64,000 nucleotides of DNA from Escherichia phage vB_EcoM_JB75. Positions 2,223 through 42,081 of the stretch are shown piece by piece. Under the pieces are notes generated by a model, which was given only the letters and a program-made list of their open reading frames with translations, was not told the DNA's origin and ran no database searches. The position numbers were made by a program, and so were the translations under genes. How positions within the stretch are numbered: the stretch's first letter is position 1; every line of letters starts with the position of its first letter. The stretch lies in sequence record MH355584.1; one strand, 5' to 3'.

Positions 2223-3847
<1,625 letters not shown>

Positions 3848-24753: not shown

Positions 24754-26452
24754 TTGTGTATTGACCGGATGAAATAGAACTCATAGATGCCATTTTTTCT
24801 GTCCAATCACCACCAACGTCCCAATCAACTGTCCCAGCAACTTTCCAAGAAAGATTTCCATTTACTGTATTAGTTTGATTACCTTCAACTAAAGTGGTAG
24901 CATCTCCTTTAACTGTGATGTCAGCATTACCTTCAACTACAATAGTAACATTACCTTTAACTAGGATAGTTCCATTGCCTTCAACAGTTTTCGTTTCGTC
25001 GCCACGTACAAATATTGTATTGCTTCCATCTATCTGGTGAAGACGATTATCCATGTTGTAATAAATTTCTGATCCACCGACGTTAGTCTTTTTATCACCG
25101 GCTACCAAAAAATTACCATCAGCGTTGGTTATATCATACAAATTATCAACAGTTTTTCTTGTTCTTCTTCCTGACGGTGATACTTCTTCATAAGTTCCAG
25201 TTGGATGAACTAATCTGTATCGTTCTTGCCCAGGGGTATCATCAAATTCCTGAATATGTCCACTTTCAGTTTCCATTGTATGCACATAAGGATATTCACC
25301 TTTATATGAAGAAACTGGTTCTTTGAATAAAATTCTCGAGTCATTTGGAATAGGAGGGTCAGCAGGGTCAGAAGATTTAGCTACAGTAGCAGCCATTGCT
25401 GATAGAGACCTAGCTGGGGTTTTCACTTCAACGCCATATGATTCTAAATTTCCCGTAAGAATAATCATGGTAACACGGGATGCACGGCCTTTTGTTTGTT
25501 GATACCACAATGAATCACGACCGGCTTTATATGCTTTTTCCCAATCTCCTGCTAACATAGCAGTTAACATTGTGTTAAATTTAGCTACACCGCCAACACC
25601 CATCTGAAACGCCATATTTTCTAATGCCATTTGACGAGAACGGTTGACAGCTTGCCAGACTGGTCCTACTTTAGAATGTGATTTAATATCCCTTTGCATA
25701 TCAGCCAAATCACGTTCAAATAAAGTCGTCGCTTCTTCCATTGTAATAGAACCTGGGTTTCCAGTAATTTCACGACCAACTTGTTTCGATAAAACTTTAT
25801 TAATTTGAGCCATATCACGAACTGGCTGCTTCATGATAAGATGACCAATACCAATTGTCGGATATCCTTCTGTATCCCAATAGACTTTTAGTCTTAATCC
25901 TTCATCACGGCGAAGCATTTCAGCCATTGACATATTTGGATTATCATCAGTTGGAATCTCTGATAGCGGTCTATCATCAGGATTTATCGCAGTGTCTAGA
26001 TTGCTATCTTGGATAATATTAGAAGACGAATCATATCCTACTTCTCCGCCTTGGTTTAATACATTAGTATCATTTCCTAAACGTCTAGGATATTGCCCAG
26101 TTGGGTCAGAAAATCCTTCAAGTCTATTCGGTTTTTCGCGAACTATTCCACCATACGTGCCAAGGACAATTCCGTTAGTTTTCCATTTGTCTAAAAAATG
26201 ACCATAAACTCTAGTTCCTTCTACCGGTCCAGTAACAGAACCTCCAATTCCAGACATTGCTGCAGAAGTTATAGGTTGAATAACTGACATCCATGGTAAT
26301 TTTTCAGTTGGAATACCCATTACATCGCCTTGTGCTCTTTGAGGTGGATGCAGACCAACCACACGAACACGAACACGACCTAATTTTAATGGGTCCATTC
26401 TATCTTCAACAACACCAACAAACCAATTAAGGTTATTACTTATCATTTCCAT
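24725..26452 (-). CDS. 5: baseplate hub / cell-puncturing device with lysozyme domain gp5
   Basis: 575 aa; contains T4-lysozyme-like segment MAEMLRRDEGLRLKVYWDTEGYPTIGIGHL; T4 gp5 length. Confidence 0.9.
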   Translation of the reverse strand: MEMISNNLNWFVGVVEDRMDPLKLGRVRVRVVGLHPPQRAQGDVMGIPTEKLPWMSVIQPITSAAMSGIGGSVTGPVEGTRVYGHFLDKWKTNGIVLGTYGGIVREKPNRLEGFSDPTGQYPRRLGNDTNVLNQGGEVGYDSSSNIIQDSNLDTAINPDDRPLSEIPTDDNPNMSMAEMLRRDEGLRLKVYWDTEGYPTIGIGHLIMKQPVRDMAQINKVLSKQVGREITGNPGSITMEEATTLFERDLADMQRDIKSHSKVGPVWQAVNRSRQMALENMAFQMGVGGVAKFNTMLTAMLAGDWEKAYKAGRDSLWYQQTKGRASRVTMIILTGNLESYGVEVKTPARSLSAMAATVAKSSDPADPPIPNDSRILFKEPVSSYKGEYPYVHTMETESGHIQEFDDTPGQERYRLVHPTGTYEEVSPSGRRTRKTVDNLYDITNADGNFLVAGDKKTNVGGSEIYYNMDNRLHQIDGSNTIFVRGDETKTVEGNGTILVKGNVTIVVEGNADITVKGDATTLVEGNQTNTVNGNLSWKVAGTVDWDVGGDWTEKMASMSSISSGQYTIDGSRIDIG

Positions 26453-32117: not shown

Positions 32118-32190
32118 TGGGAATTAGCCAAGTTGGTAAGGCATAGCACTTTGACTGCTAGATGCAAAGGTTCGAGTCCTTTATTCCCAG
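32118..32190 (+). tRNA. tRNA-Gln (anticodon UUG)
   Basis: Cloverleaf by eye: acceptor TGGGAAT/ATTCCCA, anticodon arm TAGCA-CTTTGAC-TGCTA, T-loop GGTTCGAGTCC. Confidence 0.8.
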
Positions 32191-32191
32191 C

Positions 32192-32278
32192 GCGAGAATG
32201 GTCAAATTGGTAAAGGCACAGCACTTAAAATGCTGCGGAATGATTTCCTTGTGGGTTCGAGTCCCACTTCTCGCACCA
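32192..32278 (+). tRNA. tRNA-Leu (anticodon UAA)
   Basis: Acceptor GCGAGAA/TTCTCGC, anticodon loop CTTAAAA, long variable arm, encoded CCA. Confidence 0.8.
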
Positions 32279-32283
32279 AATTT

Positions 32284-32357
<74 letters not shown>

Positions 32358-32367
32358 ATTTAATTTA

Positions 32368-32441
32368 CTCCGTGTAGCTCAGTTTGGTAGAGCGTCTGCT
32401 TTGGGAGCAGAATGTCGTAGGTTCAAATCCTGCCACGGAGA
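32368..32441 (+). tRNA. tRNA-Pro (anticodon UGG)
   Basis: Acceptor CTCCGTG/CACGGAG, anticodon arm TCTGC-TTTGGGA-GCAGA, T-loop GGTTCAAATCC. Confidence 0.8.
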
Positions 32442-32443
32442 CT

Positions 32444-32533
32444 GGAGGCGTGGCAGAGTGGTTTAATGCACCGGTCTTGAAAACCGGCAGTCGCTCCGGC
32501 GACTCATAGGTTCAAATCCTATCGCCTCCGCCA
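32444..32533 (+). tRNA. tRNA-Ser (anticodon UGA)
   Basis: Acceptor GGAGGCG/CGCCTCC, anticodon loop CTTGAAA, long variable arm, encoded CCA. Confidence 0.8.
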
Positions 32534-32538
32534 GTTTT

Positions 32539-32614
32539 GCTGATTTAGCTCAGTAGGTAGAGCACCTCACTTGTAATGAGGACGTCGGCGGTTCGATTCC
32601 GTCAATCAGCACCA
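32539..32614 (+). tRNA. tRNA-Thr (anticodon UGU)
   Basis: Acceptor GCTGATT/AATCAGC, anticodon arm CCTCA-CTTGTAA-TGAGG, encoded CCA. Confidence 0.8.
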
Positions 32615-32615
32615 A

Positions 32616-32690
32616 GGCCCTGTAGCTGGAAGGTTCAAGCAAGCGACTCATAATCGCCAGATGGTGGTTCAATTCCACCCAGGGCCACCA
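32616..32690 (+). tRNA. tRNA-Ile/Met (anticodon CAU; T4-type tRNA-Ile reads AUA after modification)
   Basis: Acceptor GGCCCTG/CAGGGCC, anticodon loop CTCATAA, T-loop GGTTCAATTCC, encoded CCA. Confidence 0.7.
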
Positions 32691-32703
32691 AATTAAGAAT
32701 TAA

Positions 32704-32790
32704 GGGGAGTTATCCCGTAGAGGTAGCGGTGTGGACTGTAAATCCATTGTCATTGCGACTCGGGTGGTTCGACTCCATCACTCCCCACCA
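32704..32790 (+). tRNA. tRNA-Tyr-like (anticodon GUA), long-variable-arm type
   Basis: Acceptor GGGGAGT/ACTCCCC, anticodon arm GTGGA-CTGTAAA-TCCAT, variable arm, T-arm GGTGG-TTCGACT-CCATC, CCA; D-arm is weak so it could be a variant or pseudo-tRNA. Confidence 0.55.
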
Positions 32791-32794
32791 ATTT

Positions 32795-32869
32795 GGATGT
32801 GTAGCTCAGTGGTAGAGCAGTTGACTGTTAATCAATTGGTCCATGGTTCGAATCCATGCATGTCCGCCA
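32795..32869 (+). tRNA. tRNA-Asn (anticodon GUU)
   Basis: Acceptor GGATGTG/CATGTCC (two GU pairs), D-arm GCTC-AGTGGT-AGAGC, anticodon loop CTGTTAA, T-arm CATGG-TTCGAAT-CCATG, CCA. Confidence 0.7.
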
Positions 32870-32873
32870 AATA

Positions 32874-32949
32874 CGAGGCATAGCTCAGAAGGAAGAGCAA
32901 GGACCTTCTAAGTCCTGGGTCGTAGGTTCGATCCCTACTGCCTCGACCA
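32874..32949 (+). tRNA. tRNA-Arg (anticodon UCU)
   Basis: Acceptor CGAGGCA/TGCCTCG, anticodon arm AGGAC-CTTCTAA-GTCCT, T-arm GTAGG-TTCGATC-CCTAC, CCA. Confidence 0.8.
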
Positions 32950-37882: not shown

Positions 37883-38851
<969 letters not shown>

Positions 38852-38886
38852 AGTTGTTTACTTTCTCCTAGAATTGTGATAGTATA
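38852..38886 (+). promoter_or_regulatory. T4-type early promoter
   Basis: AGTTGTTTACTTT ... TGTGATAGTATATT. Confidence 0.5.
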
Positions 38887-38939
38887 TTCACAGTTGCTTG
38901 AAGAGACAAATTACTAATTAAAATATTTAAAGGAAACAT

Positions 38940-39413
38940 ATGAAAACATATCAAGAATTTATCACTGAAGCAGCTATTAATTCTCAAATTATTGCTGAAT
39001 CTTTTACTGATCTTTTGAAATTTAAAAAAGGTCAAAAAATTACTGCTGTATTGGATGATGGTACAGAAGTTGAGATGGATGTACAGGGATATAATTATGC
39101 AGTAGATGGAAAACTGTATAATAAATCTCATGCTAAATTTGATTCATTTGACGACTTTGTTAATACAGTTGAAGATGAAAAAACTCGTCGATCCATTGCA
39201 ACTGGTGATGCTAAGGTTCTTATGGCACATGGTCATGAACGCATTCGCGCTAAACAGAATAAAATGGGTGAAGATAATTTTGCATTAGTTGGTTATCAAT
39301 CTGGTAAACAAACTTATGGCTATCAACGTACTGCTACAATGTATAATAAAAATGGTAAAATTGCCTTTGTAAATAGTAAAGGTTCTATTCAGTACGTTAA
39401 ATCGTTCAAATAA
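38940..39413 (+). CDS. internal protein (CTS MKTYQEFITEA), in the ipIII position
   Basis: 157 aa; canonical CTS with ITE cleavage site; early promoter upstream. Confidence 0.7.
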   Translation: MKTYQEFITEAAINSQIIAESFTDLLKFKKGQKITAVLDDGTEVEMDVQGYNYAVDGKLYNKSHAKFDSFDDFVNTVEDEKTRRSIATGDAKVLMAHGHERIRAKQNKMGEDNFALVGYQSGKQTYGYQRTATMYNKNGKIAFVNSKGSIQYVKSFK

Positions 39414-39566
39414 GCAAATAAGAAATATGGGAACAAACTGGACCTCATGATTCTATGAGGGATTCCCGCCAACCTGTAATAAGGTCGAGCCTGAGTGCGG
39501 TAATGGGTAAATACAGAAATGGACAATTCATGCGCCATGGAATGGCCCAAATTTAGAGAGAATAAA

Positions 39567-40106
39567 ATGAGAACATTTTTAACTGGTCCTTATCTATCCC
39601 TGATGAATGCTTTTACACACCATTCTGATGCTAGAGTAGAAGAAATTTGTAAAAACGATTATATCCCACCATTTGAAGACTTACTTAAACAGTATTGCAC
39701 ACTTCGACTAGATGGTGGACGTCAATCCGGTAAATCAATTGCTGTGACTAACTTCGCTGCTAATTGGTTGTATGATGGCGGAACAGTTATTGTTCTTTCT
39801 AATACTTCAGCTTACGCTAAAATTTCTGCAAATAACATTAAAAAGGAATTTTCGCGTTATTCTAATGATGATATACGTTTTCGTTTATTTACTGATTCTG
39901 TGCGCAGTTTTATTGGTAATAAAGGAAGCAAGTTCAGAGGTTTATCGCTTTCACGAATTTTGTATATAATTGATGAGCCTGTTAAATCTCCTGATATGGA
40001 TAAAATTTACGATATTCATATTGAAACTGTGCAACACTGCTGCAATAGTAAATGTTGCATTGGTGGTATTACTCGTCCACAGTTTTTCGTAATCGGAATG
40101 CAATGA
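39567..40106 (+). CDS. small P-loop NTPase with C-terminal Cys cluster
   Basis: Walker A GGRQSGKS, Walker B ILYIIDEP, C-terminal HCCNSKCC; start taken at ATG 39567 behind GAGAG. Confidence 0.55.
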   Translation: MRTFLTGPYLSLMNAFTHHSDARVEEICKNDYIPPFEDLLKQYCTLRLDGGRQSGKSIAVTNFAANWLYDGGTVIVLSNTSAYAKISANNIKKEFSRYSNDDIRFRLFTDSVRSFIGNKGSKFRGLSLSRILYIIDEPVKSPDMDKIYDIHIETVQHCCNSKCCIGGITRPQFFVIGMQ

Positions 40107-40432
40107 TGACAGACACTCAGCTTTTCGAATATCTTTATTTTTCGCCAAAAACTATTAAAAATAAATTGGTGAATCATTTTGAAATTTTAGCAAATAATAA
40201 CATTTTGAGCGAATTTTATCCCAAGCAATACAAATTACAAAAAGGTGTATTCAAAGGATGCAGAGTTTTGTGCACTGCTCCTAATGCAAGATTAATGAAT
40301 AAAATTCCGTATTTTACCATGGAATTTATTGATGGACCTTTTAAAGGATTAATTACGCAAAGTTTAATGGCATATGATTCTGAGCCGTTTTTAATTAAAG
40401 AACAATCTTGGATAAATTTATTTTCTAATTGA
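40103..40432 (+). CDS. hypothetical protein, translationally coupled to the P-loop NTPase
   Basis: ATGA overlap with upstream stop; 109 aa. Confidence 0.5.
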
Positions 40433-40439
40433 GGTTTAT

Positions 40440-40802
40440 ATGAAAGCATATCAAATTCTTGAAGGCACACACAAAGGCACTATTTATTTTGAAGATGGTA
40501 TTCAAGCACGAATTATCGTTTCTAAAACCTTTAAAGAGGACTCTTTTGTAGACCCAGAAATTTTCTATGGTTTGCATGCCCGTGAAATTGAAATTGAGCA
40601 ACAGCCTACAGTTAAAATTGAAGGTGGTCAACACCTGAACGTTAACGTTCTGCGTCGTGAAACTCTGGAAGATGCAGTTAAGCATCCGGAAAAATATCCG
40701 CAGCTGACCATCCGTGTATCCGGTTATGCAGTTCGCTTTAACTCTCTGACTCCGGAACAGCAGCGCGACGTTATCGCTCGTACCTTTACCGAGAGTTTGT
40801 AA
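40440..40802 (+). CDS. autonomous glycyl radical cofactor (GrcA/YfiD-like; T4 Y06I-type)
   Basis: 120 aa; C-terminal ~60 residues match E. coli YfiD/GrcA as I recall it, including the radical glycine in RVSGYAVRF. Confidence 0.85.
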
Positions 40803-41023
40803 TGGCAAAGATAATTATTGAAGGTTCTGAAGATGTGCTAAATGCTTTCGCCGAGTGGTTTAGTAATTCAGGCGAACAGCAATTTAATGAAGCCTGGAAT
40901 ATGGGTGATATTGATGGAATTTATCCTACGACAGAAATTTCTGTTCAGGGATATGGCATTCATGAACCTATTCGTTTAGTTGAATACGATTTATGCACTG
41001 GTGAGGAAGTCAAATATGATTGA
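40802..41023 (+). CDS. hypothetical protein
   Basis: 73 aa ORF, start overlaps upstream stop. Confidence 0.5.
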   Translation: MAKIIIEGSEDVLNAFAEWFSNSGEQQFNEAWNMGDIDGIYPTTEISVQGYGIHEPIRLVEYDLCTGEEVKYD

Positions 41024-41282
41024 AGATATTAAGGGTTATAAACCACATACCGACGAAAAAATCGGTAAAGTAAATGCTATTAAAGACGCTGAAGTTCGTT
41101 TAGGACTTATCTTTGATGCTTTATATGATGAATTCTGGGAAGCGTGGGACGATTGCGAAGACTTTGAACTCGCGAAGAATTATGCTGAAAGCCTCGATCA
41201 GTTAGCTATTGCTAAAACGAAACTCAAAGAAGCCAGTATGTGGGCTTGTCGTGCTGTGTTCCAACCAGAGGAAAAATACTAA
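41016..41282 (+). CDS. hypothetical protein
   Basis: ATG at 41016 overlaps upstream stop (ATGA); 88 aa. Confidence 0.5.
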
Positions 41283-41560
41283 TGGCTCAATTAAGCGCAG
41301 GGTTTGGTTATGAGTATTATACTGCCCCTCGTCGTGTGTCTGCTGCTCCTAAGAAAATTCAAAGTCTTGATGACTTCCAGGAAGTAGTCCGTAACGCTTT
41401 CCAGGACTATGCACGGTATCTTAAAGAAGATTCACAGGACTGTCTCGAAGAAGATGAAATTGCTTACTATACGCAGCGTCTTGAACAGCTCAAAAATCTA
41501 CATGAGGTTCGTGCAGAAGTTTCAAAGTCTATGAATAAATTGATTAGATTTAAAGAATAA
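41282..41560 (+). CDS. hypothetical protein
   Basis: TAATG overlap start at 41282; 92 aa. Confidence 0.5.
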
Positions 41561-41561
41561 C

Positions 41562-41594
41562 TGTTTACTTTTCCTCTTGACTGTGGTATAATTT
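41562..41594 (+). promoter_or_regulatory. T4-type early promoter (upstream of regB)
   Basis: CTGTTTACTTTT ... TGTGGTATAATTT. Confidence 0.55.
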
Positions 41595-41619
41595 TTCTAT
41601 CAGTTAAGAGGAGAACAAC

Positions 41620-42081
41620 ATGACTATCAATACAGAAGTTTTTATCCGTCGAAATAAGCTTCGTCGTCACTTTGAGTCGGAGTTTCGTCAAATTAACAAT
41701 GAGATTCGTGAGGCATCAAAAGCAGCAGGAGTCTCATCGTTTCATCTAAAATATTCTCAACATCTTCTTGATCGTGCAATTCAACGGGAGATTGATGAGA
41801 CATATGTTTTTGAATTATTCCATAAAATAAAAGACCATGTTTTAGAAGTTAATGAATTCCTGAGTATGCCTCCGCGTCCTGACATTGACGAGGATTTTAT
41901 TGATGGGGTTGAATATCGTCCTGGACGTTTAGAAATCACAGATGGAAATCTTTGGCTTGGATTTACGGTTTGTAAGCCTAATGAGAAGTTCAAAAACCCG
42001 TCACTTCAATGCAGGATGGCAATTATCAACAGTCGTCGTTTACCAGGAAAGGCTTCTAAAGCAGTAATTAAAACTCAATGA
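41620..42081 (+). CDS. regB: site-specific endoribonuclease RegB
   Basis: 153 aa; length and position match T4 regB; own promoter and SD. Confidence 0.8.
   Translation: MTINTEVFIRRNKLRRHFESEFRQINNEIREASKAAGVSSFHLKYSQHLLDRAIQREIDETYVFELFHKIKDHVLEVNEFLSMPPRPDIDEDFIDGVEYRPGRLEITDGNLWLGFTVCKPNEKFKNPSLQCRMAIINSRRLPGKASKAVIKTQ

Follow-up and report, generated by a model that had tools for sequence, protein, structure and literature searches.

The two overlapping genes at 39567-40432 of the stretch analysed here, 64,000 nt of Escherichia phage vB_EcoM_JB75 (MH355584.1; hereafter the window), are almost certainly orthologues of the catalogued T4 genes vs.8 and vs.7 and hence genes already known. It is near certain as well that Vs.8 belongs to the terminase-type P-loop ATPases. 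Together with a conserved leader the two genes form an operon common to enterobacterial T-even phages, which probably encodes a Vs.8 ATPase regulated by Vs.7 and serving as an accessory early module for host interaction. An earlier sequence-only reading of this DNA had described an unassigned NTPase pair; its observations are confirmed in part and its interpretation is partly supported. The features of the operon, all on the + strand, are as follows.

39425-39566, + strand: conserved leader of the operon; identity to the T4 sequence, in which it is annotated as the first 40 codons of Vs.8, is about 95%
39457-39516, + strand: candidate three-way-junction RNA motif of about 60 nt, made up of P1, P2 (ACCU-GUAAUA-AGGU), P3 (C(N)AGY...RCGG), UAA and the 3' strand of P1
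39567-40106, + strand: vs.8, 179 aa, a stand-alone terminase-type ASCE/RecA-like ATPase domain
39714-39737, + strand: Walker A, GGRQSGKS, residues 50-57, aligning with SRQLGKT of gp17
39957-39980, + strand: Walker B, ILYIIDEP, residues 131-138, including the position that aligns with the catalytic Glu, with the invariant R124-G125 ahead of it
40035-40058, + strand: Cys-rich stretch HCCNSKCC, residues 157-164, lineage-specific and not a conserved site
40103-40106, + strand: ATGA stop/start overlap of vs.8 and vs.7, which indicates translational coupling
40103-40432, + strand: vs.7, 109 aa, two N-terminal helices and an SH3/KOW-like beta-barrel

Identity and genomic setting of the two genes

The region 39420-40440 is 100% identical to the reverse strand of the record of Escherichia phage vB_EcoM_OE5505 (Tequatrovirus; T4/T2-like) and is matched by 713 phage records in total, among them RB32, AR1 and PP01 (96-97% identical), in which the genes are named vs.8, vs.7 and vs.6. 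The vs.8 product shares 173 of 179 residues (96.6%) with the C-terminal 179 residues of T4 Vs.8 (NP_049732), and the vs.7 product 108 of 109 (99.1%) with T4 Vs.7 (NP_049731). Profile matches are full-length for both, to phrog_1488 for the first (the T4 Vs.8 family; E 1e-79, residues 3-179) and to phrog_2049 for the second (the T4 Vs.7 family; E 3e-54), and homologues of Vs.7 bear a precomputed PF26834 assignment. The statement that the pair could not be assigned to a known T4 gene thus falls away, while both reading frames and the ATGA overlap at 40103-40106 are borne out by the ORF list and the sequence. The same reading had named homology to a vs.x protein of established function as what would speak against it; the homology is certain, and neither protein has an established function.

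In T4 the gene order is e, ipIII, ipII, denV, vs.8, vs.7, vs.6, vs.5, vs.4, vs.3, regB, vs.1 and vs. From vs.8 onward the order is the same here, including vs.6, whose product is GrcA-like, and vs.4, which we take to be Acb2. The difference lies upstream of vs.8, where T4 has denV and the present phage an internal-protein gene. Nucleotide homology to T4 breaks off at 38971 and is regained at 39425. In place of the 1.44 kb that hold ipIII, ipII and denV in T4 there are 453 bp (38972-39424) that encode one internal protein of 157 aa (DUF7412, phrog_3155); no denV was detectable anywhere in the 64 kb. The same replacement junction recurs in 310 phage records, and a T2 record has it too. The function of the v gene is classically absent from T2, which a T2-type junction lacking denV fits. 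The two genes had been described as standing where T4 has denV and ipII. However, T4 itself carries vs.8 and vs.7 directly after denV, so that the pair is a conserved neighbour of the variable segment and not its replacement. In the phages compared, the position of vs.8 is conserved between denV or the internal-protein gene and vs.7/vs.6. Elsewhere in the window there are ten tRNA genes at 32118-32949 (Gln, Leu, Gly, Pro, Ser, Thr, Met/CAU, Tyr, Asn and Arg), T4 having eight, and a second lysozyme-like sequence on the - strand (25436-25933), 43% identical to T4 e, which is presumably the lysozyme domain of the baseplate protein gp5.

Annotation of the family in GenBank is uneven. Several records (OM386666, MH809535, MN895437, MK962754 and others) label Vs.8 and Vs.7 an 'endoribonuclease'; no ribonuclease family was found for them in Pfam, PHROGs, NCBIfam or fold searches, and the label is probably annotation drift from the neighbouring regB. 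A few records call Vs.8 'terminase large subunit' or 'DNA packaging protein', and the latter label reflects ATPase similarity only.

The start of vs.8

The mechanical reading frame of vs.8 begins at 39519 and ends at 40106 (195 aa), while the conserved start is the ATG at 39567 (179 aa): all 17 aligned Vs.8 homologues start at the Met encoded there, with the pattern M-[KR]-x-[FL]-L-T. In the T4 record Vs.8 has 219 aa and starts 40 codons earlier. Here that start lies in the wrong frame: compared with T4, 8 nt are deleted shortly before the conserved ATG, which breaks the annotated T4 frame, and the extension is found as protein in no other homologue. Taken together, the broken frame and the absence of the extension elsewhere argue that the 5' 140 nt are non-coding, and the alignment indicates that the conserved Vs.8 is the protein of 179 aa, not the one of 219 aa annotated in T4. 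A 33-aa ORF at 39455-39556, a 'hypothetical protein' in the OE5505 record (KMC18_gp127), lies on the RNA motif described below and is probably spurious.

Vs.8 is a stand-alone terminase-type ATPase domain

[quoted passage not shown] Among 17 homologues, down to 41% identity, D49-G-G-R-Q-S-G-K56 is invariant, as are R113, R124-G125, I134, I135, E137 and P138; D136 is conserved in at least 90%. The nucleotide-binding and catalytic signature GRQxGK[ST], RG, hhhh[DE]E is thereby retained. An AlphaFold2 model (pLDDT 80.3, pTM 0.81) consists of one alpha/beta domain.

The cysteine cluster fared differently. HCCNSKCC is present in the sequence, but as a conserved feature it does not stand, since it is missing outside relatives of Tequatrovirus and Mosigvirus. 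In the Yersinia, Dhaka-, Karam- and Klebsiella-type homologues the stretch is replaced by sequence free of Cys; most homologues below about 60% identity lack the Cys residues, and their spacing varies even among close ones. Residues 158-168, where the cluster lies, are the one part of the model whose pLDDT falls below 50. A metal site of the zinc-ribbon or Fe-S kind was considered and rejected on these grounds, the residues being unconserved, the loop of low confidence and the Pfam match to a conotoxin family sub-threshold (20.3 against 23.2 bits).

Comparison with known families shows that Vs.8 is a single RecA-like P-loop domain whose nearest sequence relatives are the ATPase domains of terminase large subunits. 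It matches phrog_2 (terminase large subunit) with E 7.7e-6, and hhalign places its motifs on residues 160-275 of gp17, GGRQSGKS on SRQLGKT and KFRGLSLSRILYIIDEP on the Walker B stretch of gp17, at a probability of only 11.7% against that single sequence. The Pfam model Terminase_6N is far sub-threshold (12.7 bits, cut-off 22). With the ATPase domain of T4 gp17 and PHROG 2, Vs.8 shares the terminase-typical R-Q form of Walker A (GRQxGK[ST]) and the RecA-like core, and both have an RG dipeptide 8-9 residues before the hhhhDE of Walker B. An ASCE core with Walker A, Walker B and catalytic Glu, by which terminase large subunits are recognized, is found in Vs.8. In contrast, the large subunit has a lid subdomain and a C-terminal RNase-H-like nuclease domain, and Vs.8 has neither: it is 179 aa long against 610 aa and ends just past the last core strand, where the terminase coupling motif would be. 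The settings differ too. Terminase large-subunit genes belong to the late packaging module beside those of the small subunit and portal, whereas vs.8 lies in the early region among vs, regB and tk in the same orientation; the true terminase genes of T4, 16 and 17, map about 32 kb from vs.8.

The RecA1 domains of SF2 helicases (DEAD-box, RIG-I, Mfd, RecG) are only 8-17% identical to Vs.8, which has no second RecA lobe and therefore cannot be an SF2-type helicase. A sequence search of the PDB gave nothing significant for either protein. PADLOC returned only HerA for Vs.8 (E 0.031, 10.6 bits) and nothing for Vs.7, so that membership in a known anti-phage defence system was not found there, and NCBIfam gave no match for the pair.

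Distribution, coupling and selection

Vs.8-like sequences occur in 1009 phage records and Vs.7-like sequences in 929. A profile search with Vs.8 against 1.84 billion representatives returned no more than 50 clusters with E of 1e-3 or lower, all between 66 and 259 aa long. Some distant members have His in place of the Walker A Lys, and one distant gene, flanked by the topoisomerase gene and rIIA, has no vs.7 in its vicinity. The Vs.7 family is limited to the same phages as the Vs.8 family. The AlphaFold2 model of Vs.7 (pLDDT 89.8) contains two N-terminal helices followed by a small SH3-like barrel.

Translational coupling of vs.8 to a small partner had been proposed from the ATGA overlap, and the overlap is general. 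The junction GGAATGCAATGATGA is identical in RB69, VR5, myPSH1140 and Roth67, CBH8 and PEi20 share the 4-bp overlap, and it is kept in all seven genera inspected (Tequatro-, Mosig-, Dhaka-, Karam-, Winkler- and Kanagawavirus and a Klebsiella T4-like phage). In Edwardsiella phage PEi20 the Vs.7 homologue is unannotated; it has 116 aa (3013-3363 of the locus) and follows directly after vs.8.

Comparison with T4 and RB69 gave dN/dS values of 0.07-0.17 for vs.8 and 0.03-0.25 for vs.7, which indicates that both genes are under purifying selection. The T2 record PV958097.1 (601-1136) is an exception with respect to vs.8: two separate 2-nt deletions divide the gene into fragments of 35 and 110 aa, while vs.7 is intact. 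Vs.8 is therefore dispensable, at least in that stock, and since T2 keeps vs.7 after the loss of vs.8, Vs.7 may have a role of its own.

A candidate structured RNA in the leader

In an alignment of the leader from eight phages, near-identical nucleotide blocks are found although the Vs.8 proteins are only about 40% identical, and in Karam- and Kanagawavirus the leader is present in two tandem copies. A covariance model (R1) places the motif at 39457-39516 with 68.9 bits and E 4.6e-20, the sole copy in the window. Further instances were collected with a pattern scan of IMG/VR, which gave 45 loci, and a looser scan that added more; chance matches were dropped and only those scoring with the model were kept.

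Covariation supports the pairing in 47 unique instances. The closing pair of P1 is formed in every one (AU 21, UA 15, UG 6, CG 5), as is the P1 pair next to it, 15 instances having a one-base bulge there. The outer pair of P2 (AU 44, GC 2, CG 1) and the Y:R pair of P3 (CG 40, UA 7) are likewise formed in 47 of 47. The loop GUAAUA and the junction GGUAA are almost invariant. None of 500 shuffles reached the covariation score of the alignment (A4); the motif sequences are related, so that the pair counts are not independent events. The register adopted for P3 is G-C, Y-R. An initial register (C-G, G-C, A.G, G-Y, C-G) was rejected, its position 2 varying freely (G/A/T) and its C-G changing to U-A in seven unique sequences.

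Folding energies do not point to this structure in particular. For the leader as a whole, thermodynamic folding gave z = -0.14 with a minimum free energy structure other than the one supported by covariation, and RNAalifold recovered P2 and two pairs of P3 only. The RNA structure accordingly rests on covariation and not on energy. With this support, the 'extra' 5' sequence of T4 vs.8 can be described as a conserved candidate structured RNA, new here. As a working guess, the element may be a cis-acting processing or regulatory RNA.

No match to the motif was found among the 4227 covariance models of Rfam. At E<=1 a search of 38800-40600 returned only SNORD116 (38986-39072, E 0.4), below the gathering score and outside the leader, and at the gathering threshold the window and nine other loci gave only tRNAs and one group I intron. 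An exact-pattern scan of 185,579 bacterial and archaeal genomes yielded no copy, and in the literature searched the motif sequence matched unrelated primers only. Within 38800-41700, sigma-70 promoter-like sites occur at the shuffled expectation (11 against 11.1), and the three terminator-like sites (1.4 expected) include none on the + strand or near the leader.

The leader motif in other phages

Outside the vs.8 context the motif is found in several settings. The leader stands before an internal-protein gene in Klebsiella T4-like phages, the motif adjoins tRNA clusters on the same strand in other phages, and in four phage groups it lies 0.9-5.4 kb upstream of terminase genes, three of the four sharing the large-subunit family phrog_979. 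Phages with the terminase-linked motif include FelixO1/rV5-like ones, and one instance is carried by a 360-kb contig. In light of what vs.8 is, the association of motif and terminase is suggestive.

Two side observations concern these loci. In five viral contigs of about 46-70 kb, boxA-like repeats (GTGCTCTTTCCGTTGTG and variants) flank the motif and the adjoining tRNA genes, and may hint at an arrangement of the antitermination type. In an rV5-like contig, a group I intron (Rfam, 81 bits; 3115-3418 of the locus) splits the terminase large-subunit gene, the N-terminal ORF of which has an extra insert with a PhoH-like match.

Arbiol, Comeau and Krisch (2010) reportedly described PeSL ('promoter-early stem-loop') elements as mobile regulatory cassettes in T4-type phages. 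The present leader resembles these in lying at the edge of a hyperplastic segment and in preceding an internal-protein gene in Klebsiella T4-like phages, as a shuffling cassette would. Unlike PeSL, it is without convincing early-promoter hexamers, its core is defined by base-pair covariation, and the motif is also found in unrelated phages beside terminase genes and tRNA clusters.

Defence context of the region

The description of this region as early and plastic holds, and it carries counter-defence genes. One of these is vs.4 (Acb2). Another is vs.3, which is TadIV-1, a type IV Thoeris sponge (PMC13243611). When Vs.3 to Vs.8 were each expressed singly in E. coli from the vs.8 promoter, only vs.3 inhibited type IV Thoeris (PMC13243611), and hence neither Vs.8 nor Vs.7 did. 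A neighbouring fragment, 'Part II', was the only one not clonable in E. coli (PMC13243611).

A link to defence, raised as a candidate from the sequence, does exist for Vs.8. In a preprint of May 2026 (bioRxiv 10.64898/2026.04.30.721860), T4 vs.8 was found by an AlphaFold 3 screen for binders of EcAvs2, a terminase sensor, with an ipTM of 0.84, and its co-expression with EcAvs2 was reported to cause toxicity. Similarity to terminase ATPases in sequence and structure was noted there, with conserved Walker motifs, and vs.8 was predicted to occupy the same EcAvs2 pocket as terminase with a bridging ATP; vs.7 goes unmentioned (bioRxiv 10.64898/2026.04.30.721860). The orthologue in the present phage differs from the T4 Vs.8 reported to be toxic with EcAvs2 at 6 of 179 residues. 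In this respect the T2 pseudogene is a natural or laboratory loss of an Avs2-triggering gene. By their reported description, the non-terminase Avs2 activators Ksap1 and Ksap2 are comparable to Vs.8 in being small, lineage-restricted phage proteins, similar to the ATPase core of terminase, for which triggering of Avs2 has been reported or predicted. Vs.8 differs from them in that its Walker motifs are kept and it is a true terminase paralogue.

Possible functions of the Vs.8-Vs.7 pair

The reading that we consider probable is that of a Vs.7-regulated ATPase. The coupled genes would yield Vs.8 and Vs.7 in fixed proportion, and the proteins would act as a complex in which Vs.8 would be an active ATPase and Vs.7 its regulator or adaptor, on the model of gp16, the small terminase subunit that stimulates gp17. 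The module would be early, accessory and dispensable, serving host interaction and not packaging. That its role lies in a contest with host immunity watching the terminase fold is a more tentative proposal, based on the report that Vs.8 sets off EcAvs2. Several results stand against the preferred reading as a whole. Vs.8 activates and does not block EcAvs2, which by itself gives no sign of a benefit to the phage (bioRxiv 10.64898/2026.04.30.721860), distant Vs.8-like proteins occur without an adjoining Vs.7, and in T2 vs.7 has outlived vs.8.

If Vs.8 were a non-catalytic decoy of the terminase ATPase, it would need only to bind ATP and to sequester, or set off at the wrong time, the immune proteins that sense terminase, with Vs.7 masking or delivering it. 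The terminase-like fold and motifs, the predicted seat in the EcAvs2 pocket with bridging ATP (bioRxiv 10.64898/2026.04.30.721860) and the location of vs.8 amid other counter-defence genes (PMC13243611) agree with this. However, the only reported test shows that EcAvs2 toxicity is triggered and not suppressed (bioRxiv 10.64898/2026.04.30.721860), and a protein that only binds ATP would not need the invariant E137 (aligned with the catalytic Glu), R113 and R124. The decoy reading is a rather remote prospect. A nucleic-acid-directed ATPase unrelated to immunity, working in phage DNA or RNA transactions such as recombination, host DNA takeover, or loading or remodelling, is unlikely for other reasons. 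With only one RecA-like domain and neither second lobe nor lid nor nuclease, Vs.8 fits no translocation mechanism yet known; the analysis found no nucleic-acid-binding motif; and vs.8 is dispensable in T2. Two small overlapping genes in a hyperplastic region also recall a toxin-antitoxin-like or selfish cassette in which the ATPase would be the toxin and its small partner the neutraliser, yet Vs.3 to Vs.8 could each be cloned singly in E. coli under the vs.8 promoter (PMC13243611), PADLOC and NCBIfam gave no match, and synteny is stable in about 1000 genomes and not mobile. This last explanation is hardly credible.

A bolder proposal, which we regard as a long shot, would join the leader to the history of the genes. 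The motif would then represent a hitherto undescribed kind of structured phage RNA, one marking operons of terminase-type ATPases, and vs.8-vs.7 would derive from a packaging-gene cassette copied together with its leader, now an early, Vs.7-controlled terminase mimic directed against terminase-sensing immune proteins (Avs1-3, Upx).

As T4 vs.8 and vs.7, present in about 1000 sequenced phages, the module is an ordinary one, and Vs.8 has newly been linked to the terminase sensor Avs2. Added here are the corrected vs.8 start, the leader RNA and the obligate partner vs.7, the translationally coupled neighbour of vs.8 in every genus examined, which has so far been ignored. If Vs.7 changes how Avs2 sees Vs.8, this would show a phage tuning its own visibility to an immune receptor.
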